A stretch of 64,000 nucleotides of DNA from Candidatus Woesearchaeota archaeon (GTDB lineage Archaea > Nanobdellota > Nanobdellia > Pacearchaeales > GW2011-AR1), in NCBI GenBank assembly GCA_964608765.1, contig CAZSPD010000001.1, positions 6,373 through 70,372 of the forward strand, written 5' to 3'. A program made the translations under genes and the position numbers. The notes beneath the pieces are model-generated. The model did not search any database and had not been told where the DNA came from. It saw only the letters and a program-made list of their open reading frames with translations. Shown here piece by piece: positions 2,327 through 22,851 of the stretch; the first letter of the stretch is position 1, and each line of letters begins with the position of its first letter.

Positions 2327-2650
2327 ATGAATGAATTAAAGAGGATGAAAGAATTAGCTATTTCATTTATTGATAAAGAAAAATACAAAAAAATCAATAA
2401 AATAAAAGATAAAGAAGAAAAACTACACATTTTTCAAAACACTCTGACGTCTGAGTTAAAAATAAAGCAACTTGACTTAGATTTAGAGATTAAACAAATA
2501 TCAGAAAGGCAAGTAAGAAACATTTTATCTATAAAATCCAATATAATTCATTCAAAAATACTTTTATTGAAAACAGACTTCAATGAGAAAGATTTTAAAA
2601 AAATCATTTCCTTACTAGATAAGCTAAAAACAGAGGTATCCCATGTTTAA
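2327..2650 (+). CDS. Small coiled-coil protein (hypothetical)
   Basis: Heptad-rich K/E/L composition. Its stop overlaps the next start by 8 bp (ATGTTTAA), consistent with translational coupling. Confidence 0.5.
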   Translation: MNELKRMKELAISFIDKEKYKKINKIKDKEEKLHIFQNTLTSELKIKQLDLDLEIKQISERQVRNILSIKSNIIHSKILLLKTDFNEKDFKKIISLLDKLKTEVSHV

Positions 2651-5575: not shown

Positions 5576-6967
5576 ATGAAAATTGTTTTAAGATTATCTT
5601 TAATTTTATTACCCTTAATTATTTTTTTATTAAATCTTAATTTAGTTAGCTCGAGTTTTGTTTGTGGGATTGTTAATGACTCCTTAACTTCATCTTCAGA
5701 TTGGGTAAACGTAAAAGTTTATTTTGAAGAGAATATCTCGGATTTTACAGAATGCCAAGTGAACCCAGAAAAAAAATTCTGTTGTGATATTGAAAATATT
5801 TCTTCTGTAAATGTTGAAGTTGGAAAAAAAGCATATGCAGAAGTTTATGACACTAAAAGAAAATTGACTGCGGGACCCATTTTTATTTATTTAACAGACG
5901 AAGGATACAATATTTTCCCTACAATGAATTTAGAGGAATTACCTTCATTTAATATATCCAATAATGAGATAACTGTAAACGATTCTTTTATTTATCTAAG
6001 CTTTTCTTCATCTAAAAACGCAAACAATTTTTCATACAAAATTGATTTACCTGACAAGGAAATCAAAGAAAGATTGAATGATAACAATAATAATATTCCA
6101 AATGTTTCAATCCCTCTGTCTAAAGGAGAAAATGAGCTTTTTTTAATTTCAGAAAATATAGATAGAGAAGAATTTGAAAGATTTTTAATATATAACTTAG
6201 ATTATTTTGATTTAGGAGTAAATATATTTTGTAACAAATGTAAAATAAAAAATAATTTTTTGTATGCTCCTTCTAATAAAGAAATAATAATGAATTTATA
6301 TTTTAATTCTTCACACAATATTTCAGGAGAATTTTTAACTTACTTGCCTCAAGATTGGACAGTTATGGATCACTCTGATCTTTCTGAAGTTAGTCTAACT
6401 CACAAGGCAATAGCCCACAAAGTTAATAACGAATCTTATTTTTCAGTAAATTACACTGTTAAATTACCTCAAAGATTAATTAAACAAGATTATTTTATCT
6501 ATCAAAAAGTAAATAATTACAATAAACAAACAAAATTAAGGTCATTTAGTATAGGTTTTTTACCTTTTCATAAATTCAATAGGCTTGAAGAATCTTTTCC
6601 AAAAGAAACTTTAGAACAGAGTACTTCTCCTAAAAACCCTCTCATCTTAAAAAATCAAGGTAAAGGAACATTAGAAACTGTTGCAATATTCCCAAATTCT
6701 GAAATTTCTTCTTCTTACTCTTATATTGACTACCAAGTTAAGAAAAAAAAATTGGCAAACATTGAAGAATTTAATATTTTAACAACGTTACCAGATAAGA
6801 AAATAGAAAAAATATTCTTGATATTTAAAATTAAAAAAGAAAATTTTATTGAAGTTTATTATAAAAATTCATTGTTAGAATTAGATATTTATGATGAAGA
6901 TGACTCTTATAATTATTATTCGGTTTATATTCCAGGAAAAGGGCACTTTTCAACTAAGATTTTCTAA
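5576..6967 (+). CDS. Secreted Asn-rich protein (hypothetical), 463 aa
   Basis: N-terminal signal peptide and many N-x-S/T sequons. No recognisable catalytic motif. Confidence 0.5.
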   Translation: MKIVLRLSLILLPLIIFLLNLNLVSSSFVCGIVNDSLTSSSDWVNVKVYFEENISDFTECQVNPEKKFCCDIENISSVNVEVGKKAYAEVYDTKRKLTAGPIFIYLTDEGYNIFPTMNLEELPSFNISNNEITVNDSFIYLSFSSSKNANNFSYKIDLPDKEIKERLNDNNNNIPNVSIPLSKGENELFLISENIDREEFERFLIYNLDYFDLGVNIFCNKCKIKNNFLYAPSNKEIIMNLYFNSSHNISGEFLTYLPQDWTVMDHSDLSEVSLTHKAIAHKVNNESYFSVNYTVKLPQRLIKQDYFIYQKVNNYNKQTKLRSFSIGFLPFHKFNRLEESFPKETLEQSTSPKNPLILKNQGKGTLETVAIFPNSEISSSYSYIDYQVKKKKLANIEEFNILTTLPDKKIEKIFLIFKIKKENFIEVYYKNSLLELDIYDEDDSYNYYSVYIPGKGHFSTKIF

Positions 6968-7009: not shown

Positions 7010-7249
7010 ATGGTTAAAAGTAAGATTAATCGTACGATTAATCGCAAAAAAGAGGATGTTTTGGAGTTAGGAATAATTGCTTCTTTGTCTAATTCTATTA
7101 CTCCCAAATCTACTCAAGAAATTGCAGATGAGATGAATAAACCTTGGCATTCTGTTCAAACACGCTGCTTAAGGCTCCAATTAAATAACAAGCTAATAGG
7201 GTTTAGAGTTGGAAGAATAAACCTTTGGCAGATAAAAAAGAGAAAATGA
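7010..7249 (+). CDS. Small putative winged-helix DNA-binding protein
   Basis: 79 aa, basic, with an HTH-like segment (TQEIADEMNKPWHSVQTRCLRL). Its stop overlaps the giant gene start as ATGA at 7246-7249. Confidence 0.45.
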   Translation: MVKSKINRTINRKKEDVLELGIIASLSNSITPKSTQEIADEMNKPWHSVQTRCLRLQLNNKLIGFRVGRINLWQIKKRK

Positions 7250-10200
7250 ATAAAAAAGGAATAATAAAATTAAGTTTGTTTTTTTTAGTTTTATTCTTAA
7301 TTTTAGCAATAGTGTTCTTTTCTATTTTTAGCTCTGCATCTGTTTCTTACAACAAAGAAAATTATTTTGTGGGAGAAGAGATTAATCTAGATTTTTCAGG
7401 ACATAGATATTGCTTTATTGATATTAAAACTCCTTCAGATAAATTAAACTTTGAATGCAGTGAAAGACTTTCTTTTGTATTTGAAGAACCAGGAGAGTAT
7501 ATTTTTAATATAGATTATTTAAATGAATTTGAGAAATTTGAGATTAATGTCTTAGATAAAGATTTTTCTCAAGAAGATTTAGGAAATTTGGTTCAAGAAT
7601 ATAAAAATTACACTTTAAACACTCCTCTAATAAACACTCAAGATTACTTTATCTTTGATTTTAAGAATAAAAATTCTTACACTCTAAATAGCAGTTTAGA
7701 GTTTAATTTTAGAGAAATAGGAAATTATGAGCTAATAGTGTTTTTTCCATCTGGAAAAAAAATCTCTAGACTGGGGTCTAACGACAGATATCTTTTAAAC
7801 CTTTTAGAAGAAGGAGAGTATCTTGTAGAAATAGTGGGTGGAAACAGGAAAACAACTTACACTTTTTTATCTATTAAGGATTTTAAAAAAAATTTAGTTC
7901 AAGGGAAGGCTGAGATAGGAAAACCTGTTAAATGGATTAAGGAGTTGGATTTAATTGAAGAAGGAAACTTCATAGAGATTCCTACTCTTTCTGGAATTAA
8001 AATAGAAAATGAAAATGGAGAAACATTTAATGAATATTCATTAGTTGAGTTAGATAATAAAAGTTATATTTTAATTGATAGTGAATCTCCAGAAAAATTA
8101 TTTTTAGAATATATTACTGAATCACCTTCATTAGATGAAGAAATTATCTCAGAAACAAGAAAACAGGTAACTATATTTTCTCCTGAAGAATTCCACTATA
8201 GAGATGTTTTGTCTTACACTTCAATACCCGAAAGATTGTCTGCAGGACAAGAAAATCTGATAAAAATTTATTGGATAGAAGAAGACACCTATTTAGATTT
8301 TAATGCTTTAGATACAGATAGTAATGGATTTTTAGACTATGTTGAATGGATTGTCCCACATTTATCTACACAAACGTTTGAAATAATAATTATCACAAAA
8401 GCAGACCATCTTGGCTCAAATAAAGAATTTATCTCAGATATTTATAATGAAGTTAGAACTCTTGATAATGTTTGGTCAGAAGAAATAAATGATGGAGAGT
8501 ATGTAAGAGTTGTATTTGAAATTCCTTTAAGTAATTTAAAAGACATCACAATTTTTCCAAAAGTTATTTCAGGGAATCCAGTTGTTGAAGTTTATGAAGT
8601 AGATTCAAATGAAAAAATAACTGAATTTTCAAATTTAATTTCAGAAGAGTATAATAAAATTTATCTTGAAAACTTAATCTCAGATACTCAAGACACTTTT
8701 GATTTAAAGATTGTGGGGGGGAGCTTACAGTTTGACCATATTATAGACCCTACAGGCGGATGCATAGGTGGAATATGCACTTACAATTTCACATATAGTG
8801 AAACTTGGCAAGTCCCAAATAATGTCCTAAATAATAATATTACAGTAAGAGTCTGGGGAGGAGGTGGAGCAGGTGCAGGAAGAACCAATAATGGAAGAAC
8901 TGGCGGAGGTGGAGGAGGTGCATTTGCATCTTCTAATATAGTTGTAACTCCAGGAGAGAATCTAAGAATATCTGTAGGAGATTCTGTTGCAGGAGGAACT
9001 GGAAATGGTGCAAATGGAATTCAAAGTAATGTCTCATGGCAAAATAATACTGTTGCAGTTCGTGCTGCTGGAGGAAACGGAGGAACAACAACTGCAGGAG
9101 GTTCAGGAGGAACAGTTGCAAATAGTTTAGGTACAATAAGATATGCAGGAGGAAATGGAGCCTTTACAAGTTCTGGAAATGGAGGGGGTGGAGGAGGTGG
9201 AGCAGGGACAACAGGTGCAGGAGCAAGTGCCACATCTTCAACAGGAGGAATAGGAAATTCATTATATGGGGGCAATGGAAGTAATGGAGCTGGAAATGCT
9301 AATGCTCCTTCAGGATTTATTTATGGAGGGGGTGGAGGAGGAGTAAGTAGAACCTCGGGGAGTAGAAGTGGTGGAGCAGGAGCACAAGGTTTTGTACAAA
9401 TAATCTACCAAGAAATCCCAGATACAACCCCTCCAACCTATAATAGTGTTTCAATAGATAATATTTATTCAGGGGAACAAACAACATTTTCAATTAGAGT
9501 TTCAGATAACGAAGTACTTCATCCAATAGGGGGATATATCTTCTCAACAAATAATTCAGGTTCATGGACTAATGATACATTCGTTATTTTCACTGAAACT
9601 CCTTCATGGGCAAATGTAACTAAGCTACTTAATACAAATGTTAAGACAGCCGTGGGTTATAGATGGTATCTTAATGATTCTTCTGGAAATACTGCTTCAA
9701 CTCCAATTTATACTTTAACTACTTTAAAACTTCCCCAAACTTTTGTTTATAATTTCACAGTAAGTGAAATTTGGCAAGTCCCGAATAATATCCTAAATAA
9801 TAATATTACAGTAAGAACATGGGGAGGTGGTGGAGCAGGTGCAGGAGCAACTTCCAATTTAAGAACAGGTGGAGGTGGAGGAGGTGCATTTGCATCTTCT
9901 AGTATAATTGTAACTCCTGGAGAAAATTTAACAATAAGAGTTGGGGGTTCTGTTGCAGGAACAACTGGAAATGGTGCAAATGGAATTCAAAGTAATGTTT
10001 CGTGGCAAAATAATACTGTTGCAGTTCGTGCAGCGGGTGGAACAGGAGGAGCAACAAATGCAAGAGGGACAGGAGGAACAGTTGCAAATAGTTTAGGTAC
10101 AATTAGATATGCAGGAGGAGATGGATATTATGTTTCAAATTCAGGAAATGGAGGTGGTGGAGGTGGTGGAGCAGGAACAACAGGGGCAGGAGCAAGTGCT

Positions 10201-13200
10201 ACATCTTCAACAGGAGCAACAGGAACTTCATTATACGGAGGTAATGGAGGAACAGGATCACAAAATCCTGCAGGAACTTCAGGAAATGGAAGTAATTATG
10301 GAGGTGGTGGTGCAGGATTAAGAAGAACTTCTGGAAATAGAATTGGTGGAACAGGAGCACAAGGTTTTGTACAGATAATTTATCAAGAGACTCCGGACAT
10401 AACTCCTCCAACTTATAATAGTGTTTCAGTAGATACGATTTATTCAGACACACAAGCAACTTTTTCAATTAATGTTTTAGATAATTCAAATATTCATCCT
10501 ACAGGAGGATACATATTTTCAACAAATAATTCAGGTTCATGGACTAATGATACATTCGTTATTTTCACTGAAACTCCCTCGTGGGCAAATACAACCAAAT
10601 CACTTAATCCAAATCCAGGAACGAATGTAGGTTATAGATGGTATTTTAATGATTCTTCAGGAAATACTGCCTCAACTCCAATTTATACTTTAAGAACAGA
10701 AAAAGAACCAGGTTCAAAATACACTATTAATTCAACAGGAAGTGCATCTGTTTATGCTGTGGGAACAACTTCTTCAAATAGATGGGCAGCAGGAACAGCT
10801 TCGAGTGTTGCTCAACGAGCAAACATGTCCTTGATTGATAATAGGTATGCAAGGGTTGCAACAACAGCAAATAATAGATATCCTTTTTACAGATTTAATT
10901 TTACAATAGAAGAACAAGTTTTTACAATTTCTTCTATTTTCATAAGATTCACAGGATATAAAACTTCTAGTCAAACAGCAACACTTTATGTATGGAATTT
11001 TGCAACTAGAAATTGGGTTCTGATAAGTGATATCCCAGACTCCCCTTCAGATGTAACATTAAACATAACAAATAATATTGGAGATTATATTGATGATAAT
11101 CAACAATTAGTAATTATTGCAGAAGGTAATCGTTTTTCAGCTAGAGGGAATTCAATATTTGTAGATTATGTAAGTGTTAATGTCCTTTATGAAGAAGATA
11201 CAACCCCCCCAACTTATAACAGTGTTTCAATAGATAATATTTATTCAGGGGAATTAACAATATTTTCAATTAATATTTCAGATAATGCAGCGCTTCATCC
11301 AAATGGAGGATACATATTCTCAACAAATAATTCAGGCTTATGGGTGAATGATTCATTTGTTAGCTTTACTGAAACTCCCTCGTGGGCAAATACAACCAAA
11401 TCACTTAATCCAAACAAAGAGACAGCTGTAGGTTATAGATGGTATCTTAATGATTCTTCTGGAAACACTGCTTCAACTCCAATTTATACTTTAACTACTT
11501 TAAGGCTTCCCCAGATTTTTATTTATAATTTTACAGGGAGTGGAACTTGGAGAGTTCCAGATAATGTTGAAAACAATAATATTACAGTAAGAGTGTGGGG
11601 GGGCGGGGGAGCAGGTGCAGGATTAACAGCTACTGGATATGGAGGTGGTGGAGGTGGCGGAGCATTTGCATCTTCTAATATAATTGTAACTCCGGGAGAA
11701 AACCTAAGAATATATGTAGGAGGTTCTGTAGCAGGAACAACTGGAAATGGTGCAAATGGAATTCAAAGTAATGTCTCGTGGCAAAATAATACTCTTGCAG
11801 TTCGTGCTGCTGGAGGAAACGGAGGAACAACAACTGCAGGAGGTACAGGAGGAACAGTTGCAAATAGTTTAGGTACAATAAGGTATGCAGGGGGAAACGG
11901 TTTTAGACCAACATCTGGAACAACAGGTGGAGGAGGTGGAGGGGGTGCAGGAACAACAGGTACAGGGGGAAGCTCTACTTCTCAAATAGGTGGAACAGGA
12001 ACTTTAGAATTCGGAGGAGATGGTGGAAATGGAGGGGCTTTAAACGGTAATGGTAATCCAGGACAAAGTTATGGAGGAGGTGGTGGAGGTACTAGAAGAA
12101 CTTCTGGAAATAGAGTTGGTGGGGGAGGAGCACAAGGTTTTGTACAAATAATATATTTTGGTGAAGAAGATATAACACCTCCAACATACGGGGACCCTTC
12201 AACTGATAATATTTTTTCAGGAGAATTGACAACATTTTCTATTGAAGTTTCAGATAATGCAGCACTTCATCCAAGAGGAGGATACATATTTTCAACAAAT
12301 AACTCAGGTTCGTGGGTTAATGATTCATTTGTTAGCTTTACTGAAACACCTTCATTAGCTAATTCAATAAAAACTCTCCACTCAACTGTTGGAGCAGTTG
12401 TAAGTTATAGATGGTATTTTAATGATTCTTCAGGAAATACTGCCTCAACTCCAATTTATACTTTAAGAACAGAAAAAGAACCAGGTTCAAAATACACTAT
12501 TAATTCAACAGGAAGTGCATCTGTTTATGCTGTGGGAACAACTTCTTCAAATAGATGGGCAGCAGGAACAGCTTCGAGTGTTGCTCAACGAGCAAACATG
12601 TCCTTGATTGATAATAGGTATGCAAGGGTTGCAACAACAGCAAATAATAGATATCCTTTTTACAGATTTAATTTTACAATAGAAGAACAAGTTTTTACAA
12701 TTTCTTCTATTTTCATAAGATTCACAGGATATAAAACTTCTAGTCAAACAGCAACACTTTATGTATGGAATTTTGCAACTAGAAATTGGGTTCTGATAAG
12801 TGATATCCCAGACTCCCCTTCAGATGTAACATTAAACATAACAAATAATATTGGAGATTATATTGATGATAATCAACAATTAGTAATTATTGCAGAAGGT
12901 AATCGTTTTTCAGCTAGAGGGAATTCAATATTTGTAGATTATGTTGGAGTTACTACATATTATGTAAAAGATGTTATTCCTCCATCTTATAGTAGTGTTT
13001 CTGTAAACAACACTGAACCAGATGAGCCTGCAAGATTTTCAATTAGAGTTTCAGATAATATTGCACTTCATCCAAGAGGAGGATATATCTTTTCAACAAA
13101 TAATTCAGGTTCATGGATGAATGATTCATTTGTTAGTTTTACTGAAACTCCTTCATGGGCAAACGTGACAAAGATATTATCTCAAGAGGAATTAATACCT

Positions 13201-16200
13201 ATTGGTTATAGATGGTATTTTAATGATACTTCTGGAAATACGGTTTCAACTCCAATTTATACTTTAAGAACAGATGCTTATCCCCCTTCTGCATCTCAAG
13301 TTCAATGTGAGAGAGCAGGTTCTTGGAGAGATTGTAGTACATTTAAATTTTCAGATACAATTACTAGAGTTAGAATTAGCTGTGGAGGAGAAGTTATAAA
13401 TGCAGGATTTAATTTAATTAATATCCCAGATTCTCGAACTTTTTTTAATTCAAACTCAACTTCAAATGAGGGGAATTGGTGGATATATGATAATGCAGAT
13501 TTAATTATAAATGATTCAGGAACATTTAACTTAACTGGGGTGTGTTATGGCCCTTCTTCTCAAACAGAAAGCTTCGTAAATTGGACTGTTCCTTGGGGAA
13601 GATTAGAGGTAGACTTAGTTAATCCAAATATGAATACAAATGTAAACCCTAATGAATTTTTTGATTTTACAGCAAGTGTAAGATGTGTTGAAGGAGAGTG
13701 TGGATTTGTGAATATTACTTTAGATCCTACTGACTCCTGGTGGAATAAAGAGTATGAAAATAGGAGATTGATAAACATAACTAATCCAAGTAATTCAATT
13801 TTAGTTCAAAACTATACGATGCTTGTTGTTGTAGATACAACAGGAGAAGAATTCAAATCTAATGGAGATGATTTAAGAATAGTATACTGGAACGGTACTC
13901 ACAATATAGAAATAGATAGATACAACAGCACATCATTTGATGACCCTTCAACAGAGATTTGGTTTAGGATACAATCTAATATTTCATCTAGGGGGTATAG
14001 TGATAATTATTACATATACTATAATAATAAAGATGCATTAAATCCTCCAAGCAATGGAAGTAGAGTCTTTGAATTTTTTGATGATTTTAATAGACCAAAT
14101 AGTGGGACAATAGGAAATGGGTGGACAGAAACTTCAGGAACATGGGATATTTTAAATGGAAAAGTAAGAAATACTTATGGAGGAGATAGTGATTTAACAA
14201 GAACAACCATTACAGACAATCACTCTTTAAGAGCAATAGCAACCCCTGTGGTTTATGATGCAGATTTTAAACTTTCAATACGTTCTTCGACTTCTTTTAC
14301 ATCTGGATACACTTTTGGTTATCAAAATAATTACATGGAGCTAACCACAGAAGGACACACTACAAACAATTTAGGCTCTTCACCTTTTTCAATAATTGAA
14401 GGAAATACTTATGAAATAGAAATAAATACTGTGGGGAATAGAATAGTTGCATATGCAAACGGAAATATTATTTTTAATTTGACCAACACTGCTTTTTCTT
14501 CAGGAAGAATGCTTCTTCATTCATGGGATATTACTGATTTTGATGATGTTTGGCTAAGAAAATTAATTGACATAGAGCCAGTTTATTCTTTAGGAGCACA
14601 AGAAAAAGTTTCAAAAGGAATTTTATCTACTGTCGTAGGAGATATTCCATTTTACACCACTTCAAGAAATCCCATGGATTATAGAGGAACAAGTTGTTTA
14701 TCAGATATGAAATCAGGAGATGTTTGCGATGTAACTTGGCACGTGAATTCAACAGGAAAAATAGGTTCTATATGGGAGTTTTTTGTCTTTGCAAACACAA
14801 CTAATTATACAAATTATTTTAATTCTAGTGATACTTCTTCTTATATAAATATCACTATTGGAAATCTTCCTCCAGAAATCCCAGAATTAAATTTTCCTGC
14901 AAACAACAGTGCTCTAACAACTATTGGAGAATTTAATTGGAGTAATTCAAGAGACCCTACAGGAGATACTGTATATTATATGATTCAAATAAGTAATTCC
15001 CCTGAATTTACTAATTTAATTTACTCAAATTATAATATTCCAGAACAAGACACTATTACAGGGATCACTCCAACAGGAATCACTCAAGAAGGAGCATACT
15101 ATTGGAGAGTTTTAGCAACTGATTTAAAATCAAATTCTTCATGGAGTGAAACAAGAATATTTTATTATGATTTAAGCCCTCCAATAGTTAATTTAATTTC
15201 ACCAGAGCATAACTCAATTATAACTTACTCAAATACAATAGACTTTATATTTAATGTAAATGATTTATCAGATATTCAAAGATGTGATTTAATTATTAAT
15301 GACTCTGTAAGAGATACTTTAATAGATGTTGAGAAAAATACTAATGTAACATTTACTTTTTCTCTTTTAAATTCATTTTATAATTGGAGAATAACTTGTG
15401 CTGATTCAGCAGGTAGAGAAGGATATTCTGAGACTAGACTTTTAAATGTAGATGTTTCAAATAATCCTCCAAAAGTGGGGAAAATAGAGTGTGAGAAAAA
15501 AGGAGTCTGGCAAAATTGTAGCTCAATAGTATTTGGAGATACACTAACAAGAGTAAGAGTATTTTGCTCAGATCCAGAAGAATCAGTAGGAGAAGGAGTA
15601 GTAAATGCATCTATTAATTTAACAAATATTCCAGATGCACATACTTTCTTTGAGGAACTTAGTTTTGAAGAAGATGGATATGGTTTTTGGATGTTTAATA
15701 ATCTTAATTTTAAAATAAATGACTCAGGAGAATTTATTATTTATGCTACATGTTATGATGAGGATGCTCTCTCAGGAACAAACTCTACAAGTTGGAATGT
15801 TCCCTGGGGAACATTTGCTATTGATTTAATTAATCCCAACTCAGATATAAAAGTTCTGAAAGATAACTTTTTTACATTTAGCTCAAGAATAAAATGTATT
15901 AATGGAGAGTGTGGAAATGCAAATGTAACTCTAGACCCCCCTAATTGGTGGAATGAAACATGGAGTTCTAGAAAAACAATTAATATTACTAACTCTGGAG
16001 AAACTTCTCTTTTAAATTTCCCAATTTATATTAACTTATCTAAAGAACCAGAAATGCAAGCAAACTTTAATGATATTAGATTCATCAATGGTTCTTGTGG
16101 TTCTACAGGTAATTATTTGTATTTAGATTATGAAATAGAAAACTATACTTCTTCAAAAGCAGATGTCTGGATAAATATTCCTCGTTTTTCTCCAGGAGTA

Positions 16201-19200
16201 AATCAAATTTGTATGTATTATGATAATCAATTTGCACTGTCTGGACAAAATCCAATTAGAGTCTGGGATAATAGTTATTTGACTGTACAACACTTAGAAG
16301 AAACAGGAACAGGAATAAGGTATGATAGTAAATATAGAAGAAATTTTACTACAACAGGGTATGATAATGATGAAAATGTTTTTGGGATAATTGGAGGAGC
16401 AGACTTATTAGATGGAGTTAATGATGCACTTACTTCAGGAAATAGTTTCTTAAATAATTTGGGAGCATTCACAATTGAAGGATGGATTAAACCCCGTGCA
16501 TGGGGTTCAAGAGTTAGTTTTGTTGGACAAAATGATCTTGTAGAATTTTTCTTAGATGGTTCAAACACCATCTCAATCTGGACAGCTAATGGTGGAAGTA
16601 CTTCTACTTCTTATCCTTTCTCATTAAACACCTGGCATTATTTATCTGCAACTGGAACAGGAAGCAATATTTTAATTTACCTCGATGGAGTACAAGTAGC
16701 TTCAGGAGGTTCAAGCACTTCTAATTATGGAACTTCAACATATCACGTTAAAATTGGTGAAGGTGTAGTAGATGCATCTGGAGGATTTTTTAATGGTACA
16801 ATGGATGAAGTACGTATATCAAACATTTCCAGAAGTGCAGACTGGATTAGTCAATCTTATCAAATAATTAATAATCAATCTAATCTTGTTTCATTTGGGA
16901 TTAAAGAAGAAAAAACAAAAGGAATAATATCCACAGTAGCAGGAACAACTCCTTTTTACACAACAACTCCTAATCCTTTAGATTCAACAACATTTAGTTG
17001 TTTAGAAAATATGAAATCTTCAGGAGGTTCTTGTGATGTAAGCTGGAATGTTAATGCAACAGGAGAATTAAATTCAGTATGGAAGTTTTTTGTTACATCA
17101 AATAACTTGAATAACCAAGAATATTATAATACAAGTTCAAAATCTAAAGAAATAAACATTACAATATCCAGCCAAATACCTCCGACTGTACCTCAACTCT
17201 ATCGTCCATTAAATAATACAGCATATCCTGTAATTCCTAATTTAAATTGGACAAACTCAACAGATCAAAATAGAAGTAAAATATATTATATAATTGAAGT
17301 TAGTGATAATTATGATTTTTCAACAATAGTCTTTGCTAACTACAGTATTCCAGAGACTTCATCACCTACAGGAATTACCCCTACAGGAATAAGTCAAGAA
17401 GGAGCATATTATTGGAGAGTTAAATCTTCAAATTTAAATTCAAATTCTTCTTGGAGTGAAACAAGAGTATTTTATTACGATACTTCTGCACCTCAAATAA
17501 ATTTTATTAATCAAACAGGAGAAGATAATCGTCACATTAACAATACTAATTGGCTAAATAGGGGAGAGAATCTGACAATCTTTATTGATGTAACTGATAT
17601 TAATACAAATTATGTTTGGGTTGTAGTGTGGCAATCTATTGTAGGAGGAGTAGAAAAATTAAAGATATTCTTTAATAAAATAGGGGATTCATTATGGAAA
17701 GCAGAAATTTCAACAAATCAAACTTGGGATGATTCTTACAATTATACAATTTACGCAAATGATACTGTTGGACATCTAACAAATTATACATCTAATTTTA
17801 CTGTTTTAGGAGGAAACACTTCAATTTACTTAACTGAAGATTATGTAGTTCCTCCTTCAAATGTCTCTGTTTACGGGCACGCTTATCTTTCAAATTCAAC
17901 AGCTCTTTCAAATCATCCAATTAATATTTGGGTGGATGGAAAGTTTTTATTTTTACAAAATTTAACTCCTGAAGGAGAAGATTATATATTCTATAAACAA
18001 TTTTTAGAAACTTCTAACTCTGAATTTTCTCAAGGAACTTTTTATAATACAGAGGTTCAAAACAATCAAAATTTAATTTTATCAGATGGAGAAGCTTATG
18101 GGGAATTTACTAAAATATTAGATGCAGGAGCAATAGTGCATTGGGATAATCTCTCTTGGAATTTTCAAGGAGCCTCTTGTTCAGGAGTTTATACTTATCA
18201 ACACGGAGACACTAATGGATATTTAGGAACTGAGGATAGTTATATCAGTAGTGGATTCCCAAACATTAATTATGGTTCTAGTAATTCAATAATAGTTGAT
18301 GGTTCACCAACTTCTGAAAGAGGGTTAATTTTATTTAAAAATATAATTGGAAAAAGATTTAATCAAATCCCTGAAAATTCAACAATAAATAGTGCGAATT
18401 TAGCTTTTTATATTTCAGATACTGGAGACCAAGTTGGAGTTTACCAAGTTTTAGAAGAGTGGAATGAAAATTCAGTTACATATAATAATAGAGGAACAGG
18501 AAGCCCGTGGAGTTCTGCAGGATGCAGTGGAAGTCCTTCCCGTGCTATAATGCCTGATGATACTTTTACTGCAATAGTCCTTGGAAAATACACTGTAAAC
18601 ATTACAAATTCTTTAAAGAACTGGGTTTCAGGGCAAGAAAATTATGGATGGGTATTTAATATGCCTACAAGTAATGGTATTGAAATTAGAAGTAAAGAAT
18701 ATATTGAACTTTCAGAGAGACCTCTTTTAACAGTAGATTACGAGTCAGATGAATGTACTGATGTTCGAGTGTATATTAGAACTTCTAATAATAAACTAAC
18801 TTGGACAGAGTGGAGAGAAGTGTCTAATTTAGATTCAATAAATGATCCTAATATTTATAGCAGATATCTTCAGTATAAAGTAGAGCTATCTTCAACTAGC
18901 ACTTCTTTAACACCTACACTTGAAGATTTAACTTTCCATTATACTGCTTTAACAACAGACTCAAATGGTGATTACAATTACACCCTTGTATCACCATCAG
19001 GATTTGGATATCATAATGTAACTGTTAATACTGGTTTTAGTACAATATTTATTGAGAATACTACTAGCTTTTTTGTTCAAGCAGGATTACCTCCAAATGT
19101 TTCTTTAATTTACCCTGGAAACAATCACTGGTTCTCAGAGGAAGAGTTAACATTAATTTATAATGCATCTGACTTAAATGATGATATTATTCTTTCTGAA

Positions 19201-22200
19201 TTAATTATTAATGGGGTGGTTAATAGAACAAATTCTACTCCTATAATAAATAATGAGTATAATGAATTTATAATTAATCTTGAAAGTGGAGTGTATAATT
19301 GGACAGTCAATGTAACAGATAGTTCTGGATATACTGCCACAGCCCCTTTAAGAATATTTTATGTTGATTTAATTAATCCAAATATTTCCTTAGTATATCC
19401 TAGAGAAGGAGATTCGTTTGTTCTTAGTGAATTGAATTTAAGCTTTAATGTAACAGATAATATGGCAACTAACTTGAGTTGTAGTGTTACACTTGATGGA
19501 GAAGTAATTCATCCTTTAATTTGGGCAACAAGCCACACTATAACCAATGTTTCTTCTGGACCACTCACAGGAGGAGCCCATTATTGGAATGTAACCTGTA
19601 CTGATAATGCCTTGAGGAGTTTTACAAGTCCAACACTTAGCTTTGACATTTCAGATACTCCTCCAGAAGTTGTTTTAATTTTACCTGAGCCGGATTATTT
19701 AGATAGTGATGGAGAAGTTTCATTTACATACACTGTATCAGATAATTCAGGAATTTTAAATTGTAGTCTTTATATAGATAATGTCTTTAAACAAGCAAAT
19801 TCAACACCTGTGATAAATAATCAAGAAAACACTTTTAATATTCAGGGACTTTCAGAAGGAATTCATAACTGGACTGTTGAGTGTTTTGATTTAAGTTCAA
19901 ATTCTCATAAACCGTCTCCACTTAGTTTAAGAGTAGATTTATACAGCCCTTCTATAACTCTTAATTATCCAATGAATCTAGGAACTTCACTAACTTCAAA
20001 TGTTTATTTTAATTTTACAGTTGTTGACAGCTTTGACCCTTATTTAGATTGTAATTTAACAATAAATGGTTTAGTAGTAGACACATTTAATGCAACTTCA
20101 GGAGTAATGACTTCAAGATTAATTGAAAAACTTGCCGATGATACTAAGCTTTGGAGTGTGAGTTGTGTGGATGAAGCAGGGCATCTTGGAACTAGTTTAA
20201 CTTGGAGAGTAAATATAACAGAAGCTCCTAAAGTTGTACTTAACACATTAAATAATTCAAGATATAATTCTAATACAATTACTTTAAATTACACCCCTAG
20301 TGATAATACAGGTATAAGCTCGTGTAGCTTATATTTAAATGGGAATTTAAATCAAGTAAATCAGTCTCCTGTTTTAAATAAAATGCAAAACTCTTTTTCA
20401 GTTAATAGTCTTCCAGAAGGAATATATAATTGGTATGTTGAATGTAAAGATTATATAGGATTATCTAATCAATCTGAAACAAGAATATTTTACATAGATA
20501 GAACAGGCCCACTAATTGAAGTATTTTATCCTAGAGGAGATGATGTTTACAATTCAAATATTACATTTAACTTTACTGCAATAGATTATCTTGATACAAA
20601 TATACATTGTAATATTACAGTAAATTCTTCTGTAGTTGATTCAAATATCCTTGTATCTAATGGAACTCTTATAAGTAGAGAAGTTTCAGGAATAAGTGAT
20701 GGATACAATGTCTGGAGTGTAACTTGTTGGGATAGTTTAGGAAATGCAAATACTAGTCCAATCTTTGATTTTATAAGATACACTCATCCAAAAGTAACTT
20801 TAATTTCTCCTGAAAATAATACTTGGTTTAATACAAGTTCTTTTAATTTAACTTATTTCCCTGAAGATGATGGAGGTATAATTAGTGCTTCTCTTTATAT
20901 AAATGGAATTCATAATAGAAGTAATTCAACTATTATAACTAATAGAGCAAATAATGTATTTGAGATAAATGGATTCCCAGAAGGTTCTTACTTTTGGAAT
21001 GTAAATGTTACTGATACAACTTATTTAACTGGAATAGATGAAGAAAGAAGATTCTATGTGGATACAACTCCTCCAAACATTCAATTAAACTCACCTTATG
21101 AATCAGAAGTAATAACCACAAATAATGTTACATTTGATTTCAAAGTCTGGGATAATCTTGCAGAACACATTACTTGTGAATTTACCTTAAATGAAGAATT
21201 AGAATCTTCTAGAGTTTACATTAATGATTCAGGAGCACAATTTTATTCTATTTTAAGAGATGGAGATCACTCTTGGAGTATTAGGTGTATAGATAATGCA
21301 TCTAACCATGTTTATAGTGGAGAGATTGAGTTTAGTGTTAAAGCTCCCCCAATAGTTTCTTTAATAAGTCCAGAAAATAATTCAAGAACAGCAAGCTCAG
21401 AGATTGATTTTTCATACATCCCTTATGATTTAATAGGAATTACAAGTTGCAGATTTTACTTAGACGGAGAACTAAATTCAACAAATAGTCTTATCTCAGA
21501 GAATATAATCAATAATTTTAATATAAAAGGAATTTCAGAAGGAATTCATAGTTGGACTGTAAACTGTAGTGATTCAGATAATAATTGGAACTGGTCTGAA
21601 GAAAATATTTTTTATAGAGACATAACTCCTCCTTCAATTATTCTACACACACCTGAAAATGATACTGGCATTGATTCTAATTTAGACAGAATTTATTTTA
21701 ACTGGACTGCAATAGATATTTTAGATGATTCTCTTCAGTGTAATTTAACACTAGATGGAATAACTAGGAAACAAGATATTTGGATAACAAGTGGTATTTC
21801 AAATAGAGAGTATATTTTTACTTCAACTTTAGAACAAGGAGCACATTACTGGAATGTAACTTGTTGGGACCAAGTAGGAAATGCAAATACAAGTGAATTA
21901 AGAGTGTTTAATTTAACCTACCCTGATTTTTTAGTTAGTGACTCTGAAATATTTTTAAATGAAAGTTTACCTAAGGAAAACCAGCCTATTGAAATCACTG
22001 CAACAATACGTAATCTCGGAGGAGTAGATGTAGGAAATGTAACGGTCAGTTTTTATATAGGAGATCCTGATTTAGGAGGATATAAATTATCTCCAGATAC
22101 ATTTATAGCTATTACTAAATTCGGTGCAGTTAATGTTACTAAGTCTTGGACTCCTGAAATAGGTTCTTCAGAAGTGTTTGTTATTGTAGACCCTCCACTT

Positions 22201-22851
22201 ATTACAAATGGAACTTACAAAGAATTAAATGAATCAAATAATAAAGCAAGAAAAGAAATTAATGTTGGTTCGTGGCATTTCTTTTACGGAGATGTTTTTT
22301 CATCAAGTAATCTTGTTTTAGCAAATAATAATTCAAAGAATTTAATTAACTGGGATGCTGAAACACTTAACAAAGGGAATGTGTATGTAGTTGATTATGA
22401 TTCTCAAATATCTTGGACAAGTTTACAAGCAATAGGTAAAAATAAAGCGGGACAAATTAGTAATTCAGATTTTTCAGAAATAGATTCAGCATTAAACACA
22501 ATTGAATTTGAAGATTCTGTTTATAATGTTTATACTGATTTAGGAACTCCAAAATATTTTAGAGATATTATAGTATTTAGACATTTAATAGAAGAAGTCC
22601 CTATAATTAACTCTACAAATAATTCTAATTTTGTAACAGGAATACTTTGGGATACTTCAGATGACACAGGAGGGGCATCAGGAGAGTTTGATTTAACAGA
22701 TAGAGAAGATTTAGTGTTTATCTCTCCAATTAATAAACACGAGCAAGGAGCCTACGGAGTGTATGATTATGAATTAAGAGTCCCAGCAAGATTAAGAGAG
22801 TATAAGACAGGAGATTTAAAGAGTGCATCATTCTACGTAGAGCTTTTCTAG
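7225..22851 (+). CDS. Giant secreted multi-domain surface protein (5,208 aa in the track; the likely start is the ATG at 7246)
   Basis: One uninterrupted 15.6-kb ORF. The N-terminus is a signal peptide (MNKKGIIKLSLFFLVLFLILAIVFF). Modules, in order: Gly/Ala/Thr-rich x3, PPTYNSVS...GYRWY x5, TEKEPG x2, a duplicated ~1,000-aa super-module (Cys-rich, LamG/concanavalin-like with a DEVRIS motif, GIISTV, and FN3-like with YYWRV), a DNRLRE-like domain (WNENSVTYNNRG), about 13 Ig-like Big repeats (LISPENN...INGxxxxxNxT...EGxYNWTVxCxD), a CARDB-like domain (NLTYPDFLVSD...IRNLGG), and a C-terminal FYVELF. Confidence 0.85.
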   Translation: MADKKEKMNKKGIIKLSLFFLVLFLILAIVFFSIFSSASVSYNKENYFVGEEINLDFSGHRYCFIDIKTPSDKLNFECSERLSFVFEEPGEYIFNIDYLNEFEKFEINVLDKDFSQEDLGNLVQEYKNYTLNTPLINTQDYFIFDFKNKNSYTLNSSLEFNFREIGNYELIVFFPSGKKISRLGSNDRYLLNLLEEGEYLVEIVGGNRKTTYTFLSIKDFKKNLVQGKAEIGKPVKWIKELDLIEEGNFIEIPTLSGIKIENENGETFNEYSLVELDNKSYILIDSESPEKLFLEYITESPSLDEEIISETRKQVTIFSPEEFHYRDVLSYTSIPERLSAGQENLIKIYWIEEDTYLDFNALDTDSNGFLDYVEWIVPHLSTQTFEIIIITKADHLGSNKEFISDIYNEVRTLDNVWSEEINDGEYVRVVFEIPLSNLKDITIFPKVISGNPVVEVYEVDSNEKITEFSNLISEEYNKIYLENLISDTQDTFDLKIVGGSLQFDHIIDPTGGCIGGICTYNFTYSETWQVPNNVLNNNITVRVWGGGGAGAGRTNNGRTGGGGGGAFASSNIVVTPGENLRISVGDSVAGGTGNGANGIQSNVSWQNNTVAVRAAGGNGGTTTAGGSGGTVANSLGTIRYAGGNGAFTSSGNGGGGGGGAGTTGAGASATSSTGGIGNSLYGGNGSNGAGNANAPSGFIYGGGGGGVSRTSGSRSGGAGAQGFVQIIYQEIPDTTPPTYNSVSIDNIYSGEQTTFSIRVSDNEVLHPIGGYIFSTNNSGSWTNDTFVIFTETPSWANVTKLLNTNVKTAVGYRWYLNDSSGNTASTPIYTLTTLKLPQTFVYNFTVSEIWQVPNNILNNNITVRTWGGGGAGAGATSNLRTGGGGGGAFASSSIIVTPGENLTIRVGGSVAGTTGNGANGIQSNVSWQNNTVAVRAAGGTGGATNARGTGGTVANSLGTIRYAGGDGYYVSNSGNGGGGGGGAGTTGAGASATSSTGATGTSLYGGNGGTGSQNPAGTSGNGSNYGGGGAGLRRTSGNRIGGTGAQGFVQIIYQETPDITPPTYNSVSVDTIYSDTQATFSINVLDNSNIHPTGGYIFSTNNSGSWTNDTFVIFTETPSWANTTKSLNPNPGTNVGYRWYFNDSSGNTASTPIYTLRTEKEPGSKYTINSTGSASVYAVGTTSSNRWAAGTASSVAQRANMSLIDNRYARVATTANNRYPFYRFNFTIEEQVFTISSIFIRFTGYKTSSQTATLYVWNFATRNWVLISDIPDSPSDVTLNITNNIGDYIDDNQQLVIIAEGNRFSARGNSIFVDYVSVNVLYEEDTTPPTYNSVSIDNIYSGELTIFSINISDNAALHPNGGYIFSTNNSGLWVNDSFVSFTETPSWANTTKSLNPNKETAVGYRWYLNDSSGNTASTPIYTLTTLRLPQIFIYNFTGSGTWRVPDNVENNNITVRVWGGGGAGAGLTATGYGGGGGGGAFASSNIIVTPGENLRIYVGGSVAGTTGNGANGIQSNVSWQNNTLAVRAAGGNGGTTTAGGTGGTVANSLGTIRYAGGNGFRPTSGTTGGGGGGGAGTTGTGGSSTSQIGGTGTLEFGGDGGNGGALNGNGNPGQSYGGGGGGTRRTSGNRVGGGGAQGFVQIIYFGEEDITPPTYGDPSTDNIFSGELTTFSIEVSDNAALHPRGGYIFSTNNSGSWVNDSFVSFTETPSLANSIKTLHSTVGAVVSYRWYFNDSSGNTASTPIYTLRTEKEPGSKYTINSTGSASVYAVGTTSSNRWAAGTASSVAQRANMSLIDNRYARVATTANNRYPFYRFNFTIEEQVFTISSIFIRFTGYKTSSQTATLYVWNFATRNWVLISDIPDSPSDVTLNITNNIGDYIDDNQQLVIIAEGNRFSARGNSIFVDYVGVTTYYVKDVIPPSYSSVSVNNTEPDEPARFSIRVSDNIALHPRGGYIFSTNNSGSWMNDSFVSFTETPSWANVTKILSQEELIPIGYRWYFNDTSGNTVSTPIYTLRTDAYPPSASQVQCERAGSWRDCSTFKFSDTITRVRISCGGEVINAGFNLINIPDSRTFFNSNSTSNEGNWWIYDNADLIINDSGTFNLTGVCYGPSSQTESFVNWTVPWGRLEVDLVNPNMNTNVNPNEFFDFTASVRCVEGECGFVNITLDPTDSWWNKEYENRRLINITNPSNSILVQNYTMLVVVDTTGEEFKSNGDDLRIVYWNGTHNIEIDRYNSTSFDDPSTEIWFRIQSNISSRGYSDNYYIYYNNKDALNPPSNGSRVFEFFDDFNRPNSGTIGNGWTETSGTWDILNGKVRNTYGGDSDLTRTTITDNHSLRAIATPVVYDADFKLSIRSSTSFTSGYTFGYQNNYMELTTEGHTTNNLGSSPFSIIEGNTYEIEINTVGNRIVAYANGNIIFNLTNTAFSSGRMLLHSWDITDFDDVWLRKLIDIEPVYSLGAQEKVSKGILSTVVGDIPFYTTSRNPMDYRGTSCLSDMKSGDVCDVTWHVNSTGKIGSIWEFFVFANTTNYTNYFNSSDTSSYINITIGNLPPEIPELNFPANNSALTTIGEFNWSNSRDPTGDTVYYMIQISNSPEFTNLIYSNYNIPEQDTITGITPTGITQEGAYYWRVLATDLKSNSSWSETRIFYYDLSPPIVNLISPEHNSIITYSNTIDFIFNVNDLSDIQRCDLIINDSVRDTLIDVEKNTNVTFTFSLLNSFYNWRITCADSAGREGYSETRLLNVDVSNNPPKVGKIECEKKGVWQNCSSIVFGDTLTRVRVFCSDPEESVGEGVVNASINLTNIPDAHTFFEELSFEEDGYGFWMFNNLNFKINDSGEFIIYATCYDEDALSGTNSTSWNVPWGTFAIDLINPNSDIKVLKDNFFTFSSRIKCINGECGNANVTLDPPNWWNETWSSRKTINITNSGETSLLNFPIYINLSKEPEMQANFNDIRFINGSCGSTGNYLYLDYEIENYTSSKADVWINIPRFSPGVNQICMYYDNQFALSGQNPIRVWDNSYLTVQHLEETGTGIRYDSKYRRNFTTTGYDNDENVFGIIGGADLLDGVNDALTSGNSFLNNLGAFTIEGWIKPRAWGSRVSFVGQNDLVEFFLDGSNTISIWTANGGSTSTSYPFSLNTWHYLSATGTGSNILIYLDGVQVASGGSSTSNYGTSTYHVKIGEGVVDASGGFFNGTMDEVRISNISRSADWISQSYQIINNQSNLVSFGIKEEKTKGIISTVAGTTPFYTTTPNPLDSTTFSCLENMKSSGGSCDVSWNVNATGELNSVWKFFVTSNNLNNQEYYNTSSKSKEINITISSQIPPTVPQLYRPLNNTAYPVIPNLNWTNSTDQNRSKIYYIIEVSDNYDFSTIVFANYSIPETSSPTGITPTGISQEGAYYWRVKSSNLNSNSSWSETRVFYYDTSAPQINFINQTGEDNRHINNTNWLNRGENLTIFIDVTDINTNYVWVVVWQSIVGGVEKLKIFFNKIGDSLWKAEISTNQTWDDSYNYTIYANDTVGHLTNYTSNFTVLGGNTSIYLTEDYVVPPSNVSVYGHAYLSNSTALSNHPINIWVDGKFLFLQNLTPEGEDYIFYKQFLETSNSEFSQGTFYNTEVQNNQNLILSDGEAYGEFTKILDAGAIVHWDNLSWNFQGASCSGVYTYQHGDTNGYLGTEDSYISSGFPNINYGSSNSIIVDGSPTSERGLILFKNIIGKRFNQIPENSTINSANLAFYISDTGDQVGVYQVLEEWNENSVTYNNRGTGSPWSSAGCSGSPSRAIMPDDTFTAIVLGKYTVNITNSLKNWVSGQENYGWVFNMPTSNGIEIRSKEYIELSERPLLTVDYESDECTDVRVYIRTSNNKLTWTEWREVSNLDSINDPNIYSRYLQYKVELSSTSTSLTPTLEDLTFHYTALTTDSNGDYNYTLVSPSGFGYHNVTVNTGFSTIFIENTTSFFVQAGLPPNVSLIYPGNNHWFSEEELTLIYNASDLNDDIILSELIINGVVNRTNSTPIINNEYNEFIINLESGVYNWTVNVTDSSGYTATAPLRIFYVDLINPNISLVYPREGDSFVLSELNLSFNVTDNMATNLSCSVTLDGEVIHPLIWATSHTITNVSSGPLTGGAHYWNVTCTDNALRSFTSPTLSFDISDTPPEVVLILPEPDYLDSDGEVSFTYTVSDNSGILNCSLYIDNVFKQANSTPVINNQENTFNIQGLSEGIHNWTVECFDLSSNSHKPSPLSLRVDLYSPSITLNYPMNLGTSLTSNVYFNFTVVDSFDPYLDCNLTINGLVVDTFNATSGVMTSRLIEKLADDTKLWSVSCVDEAGHLGTSLTWRVNITEAPKVVLNTLNNSRYNSNTITLNYTPSDNTGISSCSLYLNGNLNQVNQSPVLNKMQNSFSVNSLPEGIYNWYVECKDYIGLSNQSETRIFYIDRTGPLIEVFYPRGDDVYNSNITFNFTAIDYLDTNIHCNITVNSSVVDSNILVSNGTLISREVSGISDGYNVWSVTCWDSLGNANTSPIFDFIRYTHPKVTLISPENNTWFNTSSFNLTYFPEDDGGIISASLYINGIHNRSNSTIITNRANNVFEINGFPEGSYFWNVNVTDTTYLTGIDEERRFYVDTTPPNIQLNSPYESEVITTNNVTFDFKVWDNLAEHITCEFTLNEELESSRVYINDSGAQFYSILRDGDHSWSIRCIDNASNHVYSGEIEFSVKAPPIVSLISPENNSRTASSEIDFSYIPYDLIGITSCRFYLDGELNSTNSLISENIINNFNIKGISEGIHSWTVNCSDSDNNWNWSEENIFYRDITPPSIILHTPENDTGIDSNLDRIYFNWTAIDILDDSLQCNLTLDGITRKQDIWITSGISNREYIFTSTLEQGAHYWNVTCWDQVGNANTSELRVFNLTYPDFLVSDSEIFLNESLPKENQPIEITATIRNLGGVDVGNVTVSFYIGDPDLGGYKLSPDTFIAITKFGAVNVTKSWTPEIGSSEVFVIVDPPLITNGTYKELNESNNKARKEINVGSWHFFYGDVFSSSNLVLANNNSKNLINWDAETLNKGNVYVVDYDSQISWTSLQAIGKNKAGQISNSDFSEIDSALNTIEFEDSVYNVYTDLGTPKYFRDIIVFRHLIEEVPIINSTNNSNFVTGILWDTSDDTGGASGEFDLTDREDLVFISPINKHEQGAYGVYDYELRVPARLREYKTGDLKSASFYVELF
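10631..11171. repeat. Direct repeat copy 1 (541 bp), apparently identical to 12404..12944
   Basis: The encoded 180 aa (YRWYFNDSSGNTASTPIYTLRTEKEPGSKY...NSIFVDYV) are identical in both copies. The antisense pseudo-ORFs 10774..10974 and 12547..12747 are 66/66 identical. The offset is exactly 1773 bp. Confidence 0.85.
12404..12944. repeat. Direct repeat copy 2 (541 bp), identical to 10631..11171
   Basis: See copy 1. The copies diverge immediately outside the boundaries (gtaG/gtaA upstream, aag/tgg downstream). Confidence 0.85.

Follow-up and report, generated by a model that had tools for sequence, protein, structure and literature searches.

A family of giant, putatively adhesive secreted proteins in DPANN archaea and the small secreted proteins and conserved gene cluster that accompany it

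The giant gene and its genomic source

The window analyzed here is a stretch of 64,000 nucleotides (nt) from contig CAZSPD010000001.1 (GCA_964608765.1; positions 6,373-70,372, forward strand). It contains the gene for a giant secreted protein that belongs to an unnamed family of DPANN archaea and that, judged by sequence comparison, shares its C-terminal domain with three small secreted proteins encoded beside it. An earlier annotation made from the letters alone (the sequence-only reading) had described this gene as encoding a mosaic of adhesin-type modules and had likened the product to giant surface proteins of episymbiotic DPANN/CPR organisms. The source is a DPANN archaeon, as shown by an archaeal L18e-L13-S9 operon, a G+C content of ~29% and the nearest loci, which lie in metagenome-assembled genomes (MAGs) of Nanobdellota, Pacearchaeota and Woesearchaeota; homologues of the proteins encoded around the giant likewise come from MAGs labelled Pacearchaeota, Woesearchaeota, Nanoarchaeota or Nanobdellota. 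The module list of that annotation proved essentially right, with four corrections, which concern the start codon, the length of an internal duplication and the fact that it is only partial, two modules of a class called B below and the number of immunoglobulin (Ig)-like repeats.

Positions 7225..22851 form a single open frame of 5,208 codons starting at TTG, and this frame is open and intact. The protein itself is probably slightly shorter. A locus with the same gene order as the window (L002; GenBank JBNGFB010000011.1, a Nanobdellota MAG) encodes an orthologue of 3,922 amino acids, P0172, deposited in GenBank as 'DUF2341 domain-containing protein'; other orthologues are labelled hypothetical or likewise. 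Because P0172 begins MNKKGVIKLS and the window protein reads MNKKGIIKLS from its first ATG, translation probably starts at ATG 7246, which gives a coding sequence at 7246..22851 for 5,201 amino acids plus the stop codon and a product of ~570 kDa. Protein coordinates are counted from this methionine, and the features of the giant and its gene cluster are all on the forward strand. The ATG overlaps the stop codon of a 79-amino-acid open reading frame (ORF) resembling a winged helix-turn-helix (wHTH) protein (7010..7249), in the form ATGA. A small DNA-binding ORF abuts or overlaps the start of the giant also in loci L002, L003 and L004, with a wHTH in L002, as in the window, and a ribbon-helix-helix protein in L003.

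Modular anatomy of the giant protein

The anatomy was derived from self-comparison of the protein and from profile scans with Pfam and NCBIfam. The N terminus is a Sec-type signal peptide or signal anchor (7246..7338, residues 1-31). A hydropathy scan found one hydrophobic segment in the entire giant, residues 3-35, with an SSA/S site that is kept in P0172, in agreement with the signal peptide proposed from sequence. Residues 32-505 are a unique region without a Pfam match. A conserved all-beta N-terminal region covers residues 136-510 (7651..8775); within it, residues 287-505 (8104-8760) are the N-core that defines the family. One domain of ~105 residues in the N-terminal region resembles the jelly rolls of the CBM32, CBM6 and F5-8 type C domains.

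Residues 506-2012 consist of five units in the order G-A, G-A, B-A, G-A and B-A, in which G is Gly_rich_2 (PF21722), A a module with the motif PPTY..GYRWY, and B GH114_assoc (PF14741). The stretch G1-A1-G2-A2 (8761..10710, residues 506-1155) was recognized by PF21722 (61.3 bits for G1/G2; gathering cut-off, 24.3), by self-alignment and by the DNA repeat families D1-D5, whereas B1-A3 (10711..11505, residues 1156-1420) matches PF14741 with 37 bits (cut-off, 22) and G3-A4 (11506..12483, residues 1421-1746) matches PF21722 with 35 bits. The last unit, B2-A5 (12484..13281, residues 1747-2012), was delimited by self-comparison and by alignment with P0172, and it is the only B-A unit with a counterpart there. 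The three Gly-rich modules that had been announced are thus Gly_rich_2 domains (up to 61 bits), and all five PPTY..GYRWY modules were recovered by self-alignment and have no Pfam match. The earlier list lacked the two GH114_assoc-like modules, which are identical copies. Across 8-12 kb of the window the G+C content climbs from ~27% to 35-38%, owing to the Gly-rich modules located there.

Two super-modules follow. Super-module 1 (13282..15465, residues 2013-2740) was identified by DUF2341 (PF10102, 53 bits), a weak Big_7 match, self-similarity and an Ig hidden Markov model (HMM), and contains in order a Cys-rich domain, DUF2341, a lectin-like domain, a GILSTV domain, an FN3-like domain and one Ig-like domain. 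Super-module 2 (15466..17508, residues 2741-3421; PF13385 with 72.9 bits and self-comparison) has a Cys-rich domain, DUF2341, Laminin_G_3 (16414-16851), a GIISTV domain and an FN3-like domain. DUF2341 is present in both (53 bits versus a cut-off of 23.4) and Laminin_G_3 only in the second (72.9 bits versus 27.6). Between the copies, identity is 40-42% over the flank made of the Cys-rich domain and DUF2341 and 45-59% over the flank made of the GI(L/I)STV and FN3-like domains. Hence, the duplication of a ~1,000-residue super-module inferred previously is real in kind, but a copy measures ~680-730 residues and only the flanks are alike; a LamG domain, expected in both copies, occurs in copy 2, while the lectin-like center of copy 1 differs and has no Pfam match.

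A beta region (17509..19095, residues 3422-3950) surrounds the predicted DNRLRE domain (18232-18735, residues 3663-3830), which was found as DNRLRE/CBM96 with 76.2 bits to NF033679 (cut-off, 34) and 49.8 bits to PF24517 (cut-off, 26). It is followed by an Ig stalk of ten tandem Big_13/Big_7-type repeats with a period of ~94 residues (19099..21909, residues 3952-4888), for which Big_13 reaches 71.9 bits (cut-off, 27) and Big_7 57.7 bits (cut-off, 24.1). A self-built Ig HMM detected the ten stalk domains at E-values of 1e-27 to 1e-33, an additional Ig-like repeat at residues 2648-2733 and, as weaker matches, the two FN3-like domains. The ~13 Ig-like repeats counted earlier therefore correspond to 13 HMM matches, of which ten are in tandem, one stands apart and two are of the weaker FN3-like kind. 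A CARDB domain, again as foreseen (21922..22248, residues 4893-5001; PF07705, 31.4 bits versus a cut-off of 22.7), leads to the C-terminal domain (C-domain; 22249..22848, residues 5002-5201), which ends in ..FYVELF and has no match in Pfam or NCBIfam at an E-value of ≤1 and none in PHROGs.

The Pfam and NCBIfam scans found no catalytic domain anywhere in the giant; as the earlier annotation implied, it is a Sec-type exported protein with binding and structural modules only. These modules are not low-complexity sequence, since they reach curated Pfam and NCBIfam cut-offs and have a collinear orthologue. A PDB sequence search with residues 202-5201 returned two chance-level matches only, and PHROGs gave weak matches only (E-values of 6e-4 to 5e-3). 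The prediction of glycosylation sites, which had been recommended as a check, revealed a strong enrichment: the giant contains 168 N-x-S/T sequons versus 104 ± 8.6 in composition-preserving shuffles, and its density of 3.2 per 100 residues compares with 0.25-1.2 per 100 residues in the cytoplasmic proteins of the window. A glycosylation island with AglB/STT3 lies within the same window and is relevant here because the giant and other proteins of its cluster are rich in sequons.

Several of these modules raise the question of whether the giant captures glycans as a nutrient scavenger or biofilm-matrix protein that binds environmental polysaccharides, rather than serving as a host-attachment device. 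CBM96 is an alginate-binding family (PMC9971899), CBM32-like, LamG and GH114_assoc modules are the kind usually seen in polysaccharide-active proteins, and the window has a gene for a family 3 glycoside hydrolase (GH3). However, a catalytic domain was found neither in the giant nor in its cluster, and Pacearchaeota are minimal in metabolism and have been reported to be host attached (PMC7906910). Moreover, the surfaces of hosts are themselves glycans, so that the same modules are compatible with host binding. We consider a scavenging or matrix role improbable.

The orthologue and the integrity of the assembly

P0172 is collinear with residues 1-502 and 1745-5201 of the giant, at 35-83% identity and with almost no indels, which validates the frame over ~4,000 residues. 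P0172 has nothing that corresponds to residues 503-1744 (G-A-G-A-B-A-G-A), and by this comparison they are a lineage-specific insertion and amplification. This block contains one member of an exact DNA repeat of 541 nt (copy 1, 10631..11171), and copy 2 (12404..12944) lies 1,773 nt away; the other units of the block are 70-90% identical at the DNA level. The exact repeat and the similar units make the number of G, A and B units the single feature that is open to assembler error, and we see a limited but appreciable chance that the copy number is wrong.

A more radical explanation is that the gene as a whole is an assembly artefact, a pseudogene or a mobile or viral gene, either a chimeric ORF or repeat block or part of an integrated virus with a tail-fibre-like protein. 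The 541-nt repeat, the units of 80-90% identity in residues 503-1744 and the absence of this block from the orthologue could be read in this way. An independent Logan contig from SRR8925753, which has identical upstream genes, ends at ~8463; the Gly-rich module has a weak PHROG match to tail-fibre assembly; and the HerA-type ATPase and the tyrosine recombinase encoded nearby could be taken as marks of an integrated virus. Against this stand the collinearity of residues 1-502 and 1745-5201 with an orthologue from an independent assembly, the constancy of the chromosomal setting (Xer and the ribosomal protein operon) across species and the core chromosomal content of the remaining window. A scan of 2.9 million viral contigs gave no relatives, and Foldseek of the model of a small subunit (see below) against viral structures gave nothing at an E-value of ≤0.001, for which reasons we rejected a viral or proviral origin. 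The tyrosine recombinase (25887-26720) was also dismissed as a mark of an integrated element. It is a conserved neighbor, 79% identical in L002 and retained beside the ribosomal protein operon in several species, as fits a chromosomal Xer-type gene. The locus is a DPANN chromosome and not a mobile element, and we regard an artefactual or viral gene as very improbable.

The C-terminal domain and three small secreted paralogues

When the last 207 residues of the giant were used as query in an exhaustive HMMER search, 751 cluster representatives were retrieved, 359 of them at an E-value of ≤1e-30. In every match listed, the C-domain is at the C terminus or within a few residues of it; the proteins that carry it range from fragments to 6,770 residues, many exceeding 3,000. 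The conserved C terminus noticed in the single sequence is therefore a widespread and always terminal domain.

Three genes for small secreted proteins flank the giant. Two encode type A paralogues (3545..4339, 264 residues, with a signal peptide followed by a mature N terminus VEPFGA; and 23060..23839, 258/259 residues), and the third encodes type B (23918..24661, 247 residues). All three end in ..Y(F/L)(W/Y)VEL(E/D), similar to the ..FYVELF of the giant. BLASTP aligned the C-domain of the giant with one of them at an E-value of 7e-5. In hhalign, a profile of 145 C-domains matched a profile of 49 small proteins with a probability of 98.4% and an E-value of 5.9e-15 over 171 columns extending to the last residue, while the Ig repeats, the N-region and a further protein of the cluster, compared as controls, gave probabilities of 0.2-4.5%. 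An HMM of the small proteins detected 70 of the 146 C-domain tails searched, the best at an E-value of 1.8e-17. On the strength of these comparisons, the C-domain of the giant is homologous to the three small secreted paralogues that flank its gene.

At least 600 proteins make up the small family; all measure ~240-280 residues, and none has a Pfam match. Its members have a signal peptide of the signal peptidase I (SPI) type, a variable linker with sequons and a beta-sandwich body with two invariant cysteines, and the mature N terminus ..VLA/VEPFGAN.. is nearly invariant in 49 sequences. An AlphaFold2 monomer model of a small subunit (predicted local distance difference test score of 77, predicted template modeling score of 0.70) has residues 25-56 disordered. 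In the hhalign alignment, positions 14-207 of the C-domain correspond to positions 70-258 of the subunit, that is, to its body only, and nothing in the giant corresponds to residues 25-56 of the subunit. For the small subunit, no match to a known pilin or S-layer fold was found, nor was a similarity of its fold to that of Saci_0406, TasA or AbpA. The family may be the DPANN-specific secreted family cls.004306/NEQ255 of PMC6393860.

A family with conserved termini and exchangeable cargo

We counted modules over the 44 representatives of at least 2,000 residues. CARDB and the C-domain are present in 43-44 of the 44, the N-core (residues 287-505) in 26 and Ig repeats in most. The other modules are less frequent: the DNRLRE block occurs in ~13, the Cys/DUF2341/LamG super-module in ~8, and the A (PPTY), B (GH114_assoc) and G (Gly-rich) modules in only four, three and one, respectively. 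A search with the N-terminal region found 50 relatives whose downstream domains differ, and a search with the G-A unit found 20 proteins only; Gly_rich_2 also occurs in bacterial proteins with tails of the type IX secretion system (T9SS). Since the N-terminal relatives diverge downstream and the module counts vary, the family is one of conserved termini and an Ig stalk with exchangeable lectin-like cargo. The giant of the window has this architecture, with the N-core near the N terminus and CARDB and the C-domain of ~200 residues at the extreme C terminus. The novelty of the domain combination, which the sequence-only reading had left to a database search, is partial: the single domains are ordinary, their order (N-core, cargo, Ig stalk, CARDB, C-domain) is family-wide, and only the Gly-rich/PPTY expansion is lineage specific.

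As a class, giant surface proteins rich in LamG and Ig domains are already known from DPANN and other archaea (PMC11573180, PMC10266531). The archaeal huge proteins dominated by Laminin_G_3 (PMC11573180) share with the window giant the vocabulary of Laminin_G_3, DUF2341 and Big domains, and their function is uncharacterised; that survey differs in defining no family by N-core and C-domain and in containing nothing on genomic context. In the searchable literature we found no description of the conserved termini of this family, of the relationship between the C-domain and the small subunits, or of the gene cluster. New here are a large, unnamed family of DPANN giants, the homology between C-domain and small proteins, as judged from sequence, and the synteny of the cluster. 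The N-core, the C-domain and the small subunit represent three families for which there is at present no Pfam or NCBIfam model.

A gene cluster conserved in DPANN archaea

A scan of GTDB species representatives yielded 208 relatives of the small protein, and the best 79 loci were examined, all of them in DPANN MAGs. In 34 of the 36 subunit-bearing loci of at least 15 kb, a gene for an N-core or C-domain protein lies within 10 kb. The recurrent order begins with a HerA-like ATPase, two coiled-coil proteins, subunit genes (sometimes with a helix-turn-helix gene among them) and a membrane protein with an HExxH motif, and continues with a secreted protein of ~460 residues, a small regulator, the giant (2,445 to >5,000 residues), two subunits, one of each type, a secreted protein of ~325 residues and Xer. 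The order in the window is identical, as it is in L002, L025, L039, L006 and L012.

In the window, the first gene of this series encodes a membrane ATPase of the HerA/FtsK superfamily (8..2302), its 5' end cut by the border of the window; at full length (~1,120-1,180 residues), such proteins have an Ig-like (CarboxypepD_reg) ectodomain, one transmembrane segment and a DUF87 ATPase. Then come two charged, coiled-coil-like conserved proteins of 107 and 285 residues (2327..3500), the larger of which occurs in 36 of the 79 loci, and, after the first type A subunit, a polytopic membrane protein of 366 residues without a Pfam match (4441..5541). Its HExxH motif, AIHEAGH, is kept in 22 orthologues, and the protein may serve the cluster as its own membrane metalloprotease. 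Two conserved secreted proteins complete the set, one of 463 residues (5576..6967) upstream of the wHTH-like ORF and a sequon-rich one of 328 residues (24663..25649) behind the type B subunit. At 2168-8167 of locus L003, the cluster contains upstream of the giant a second large protein (1,999 residues) with Big_13 and a match to Pfam AF_1625_C.

Cargo adhesins of the T9SS, such as SprB, are giant repetitive proteins with a Sec signal and a conserved beta-sandwich domain at the extreme C terminus. The giant of the window is like them in its Sec signal and conserved extreme C-terminal domain, and its C-domain might be a sorting or export tag, similar to those of the T9SS or the type VII secretion system, that is read by a machine built around the HerA-like ATPase, with the small proteins as co-substrates. 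Consistent with this possibility, the domain is always extreme C-terminal and has a conserved end motif, Y-x-V-E-L; the conserved genes of the cluster include those for an ectodomain-bearing membrane ATPase and an HExxH membrane protein; and giant surface proteins of Nanohaloarchaeota are fused or adjacent to VirB4-like ATPases (PMC10266531). However, Sec-type signals are present on giant and small proteins alike, and in archaea of this kind, with their single membrane, there is no obvious need for a second translocon. The small proteins comprise little more than a domain of the C-domain type. Pfam and NCBIfam scans found no match to Por_Secre_tail, TIGR04183 or another known sorting domain, there is no outer membrane and there are no T9SS genes, and the C-domain differs from T9SS tails in being ~200 residues long and having free-standing paralogues. 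We therefore judge a sorting tag quite unlikely. As for type I secretion of repeats-in-toxin adhesins, no HemolysinCabind or related match was found in the giant, and the host of the gene is an archaeon.

Proposed function and comparison with known systems

We regard it as highly probable that the giant is a member of a family of secreted glycan-binding adhesins. Our fuller proposal, in which this glycosylated adhesin binds glycans and docks through its C-domain onto a structure of the small subunits, is evenly balanced in our estimation, and for the co-assembly with the small subunits taken by itself we would at best say the same, or slightly less. We hypothesize that the small proteins assemble into a polymer or lattice on the surface and that the giant joins this structure via its homologous C-domain. 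The conserved N-terminal extension of the subunits (VEPFGA and the linker) is missing from the giant, which could therefore take only a terminal or special position, in the manner of FimH-type tip adhesins and of the cap that has been proposed for Sulfolobus threads (PMC9715654). The Ig stalk would keep the glycan-binding modules off the cell, where they would bind glycans of the host surface; if extended, the ~45 beta domains might span a distance on the order of at least 100 nm. The ligand would most plausibly be a host envelope glycan, and host attachment is what we infer from the domain types and the literature. A C terminus proximal to the cell, with the lectin modules and the CBM32-like head distal, fits the position of the Ig stalk next to the C-domain, by analogy with LPXTG adhesins. 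More speculatively, the HerA-like ATPase and the HExxH protein could assemble, process or power the structure. It is tentative, and on balance unlikely, that the giant forms the adhesive end of a complete, hitherto undescribed and DPANN-specific surface apparatus, conserved across Pacearchaeota and Woesearchaeota and comprising a polymer of the ~250-residue subunits, the HerA-like ATPase with its large ectodomain, the HExxH protease and secreted accessory proteins.

Several points weigh against this proposal. The HMM of the small family gives no direct match to the giant of the window, in contrast to the profile-profile and pairwise comparisons; some members of the giant family (in L005, for example) lack subunit genes in their vicinity; the C-domain might serve as a sorting tag, as discussed above; and the N-terminal hydrophobic segment is long and might remain uncleaved as an anchor, in which case the C-domain would be distal. 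The last point leads to a stand-alone adhesin, anchored at its N terminus and using a distal C-domain for binding or capping, with the small paralogues being independent lectin-like or matrix proteins that share the fold. The length of the hydrophobic segment (~23-33 residues), the lack of a detected polymer fold for the subunits and the members without neighboring subunit genes are all in keeping with such a protein. However, the SPI-like SSA/S site is conserved, the Ig stalk adjoins the C-domain and not the N terminus, which is unusual for an N-anchored adhesin, and the linkage of giant and subunits in nearly all long loci argues for a shared function. A stand-alone adhesin thus appears unlikely to us.

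The tip adhesins FimH and PapG of chaperone-usher pili have a C-terminal domain that is homologous to the pilus subunits and lacks their N-terminal extension. The docking of the giant onto small subunits would follow the same logic: its C-domain is homologous to subunits and is without their N-terminal extension, one adhesin gene accompanies several subunit genes in the cluster, and the lectin function is at the opposite end. The two differ in that there is no sequence or fold relationship, the archaeon has one membrane and the giant is ~20 times larger. Among the neighbors of the giant, no chaperone or usher families were found, and there was no fold match to pilins.

The small subunits can be likened to the building blocks of Sulfolobus threads (Saci_0406, with the putative cap Saci_0405; PMC9715654), TasA-like bundling pili and cannulae. 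Shared with these filaments are the SPI signal, the nearly invariant mature N terminus, the beta-sandwich body, N-glycosylation and the presence, next to the gene of the major subunit, of a gene for a homologous 'special' one. A segment that is disordered in the monomer (residues 25-56), together with an SPI signal and an invariant N terminus, is common to donor-strand filaments such as the archaeal threads (PMC9715654). Thread loci differ in having no HerA-like ATPase and no HExxH membrane protein, and the special subunit would here be an adhesin of 5,201 residues.

The membrane-anchored SPEARE giants of Nanohaloarchaeota (PMC10266531) are close in kind. They, too, are DPANN proteins, of 5,000-9,400 residues, with an N-terminal Sec signal, arrays of Ig-like and lectin domains, a proposed role in host binding and a genetic association with an ATPase of the VirB4/HerA superfamily. 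They differ in that a transmembrane segment and a VirB4/TraG-like ATPase domain lie inside the giant polypeptide. The hydropathy scan of the window giant revealed no C-terminal transmembrane segment, and the profile scans found no ATPase domain in any piece of it; at this locus, the ATPase is a separate upstream gene with its own ectodomain. An end domain in common with small secreted proteins has not been reported for SPEARE.

Pacearchaeota have been reported as unusually firmly attached to their hosts (PMC7906910), and the proteins of DPANN attachment structures are described as unidentified in cryo-electron tomography papers (PMC11420986), which makes a conserved candidate apparatus worth testing. 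The locus provides a concrete set of candidates that is widely conserved, namely a lectin-rich giant, small proteins that share its C-domain, a membrane ATPase and a putative membrane protease. If the apparatus were real, it would be a candidate for the molecular basis of firm host attachment, and possibly of material transfer, in episymbionts of the Pacearchaeota and Woesearchaeota. If co-assembly turned out to be wrong, a well-documented but ordinary giant DPANN adhesin would remain.

Other genes of the window

Besides the L18e-L13-S9 operon, the window carries S13-S4-S11-RpoD, the 5S rRNA, SecD/F, SecY and a YidC-like gene. The window ORFs that were scanned include no reverse transcriptase, and hypervariation by a diversity-generating retroelement was rejected as a mechanism. 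After a tRNA-Leu gene (29410-29495, reverse strand), a second HerA/Zot-like P-loop ATPase of 675 residues is preceded by two small ORFs (29605-32426, forward strand). ORFs of ~670-690 residues occupy the same relative place beyond the ribosomal protein operon in L002, L006 and L012, and that of L002 (684 residues) matches DUF87.

The glycosylation island (~38500-60100) includes GH3, NDP-sugar epimerases and dehydratases, a Wzx-like flippase, a GT10 fucosyltransferase, GT2 and GT1/GT4 glycosyltransferases and a methyltransferase; AglB/STT3 is located at 56390-59071 (reverse strand) and is accompanied by an AglH-like GT4. A GDP-mannose 4,6-dehydratase of 793 residues (44114-46495, reverse strand; PF16363, 452 bits in two stretches) is apparently split by an intein of ~384 residues, with the junctions ..LFNHE/CISENT.. 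and ..TIVISN/SPKRGKQ.. and a weak LAGLIDADG_3 match at residues 368-435. The SecD homologue (42540-44075, forward strand) has an N-terminal PDZ domain (PF13180/PF17820) and lies beside SecF (41554-42543). The SecF ORF, when read from TTG, overlaps a tRNA-Gly gene (41557-41629), and its true start is probably further downstream.

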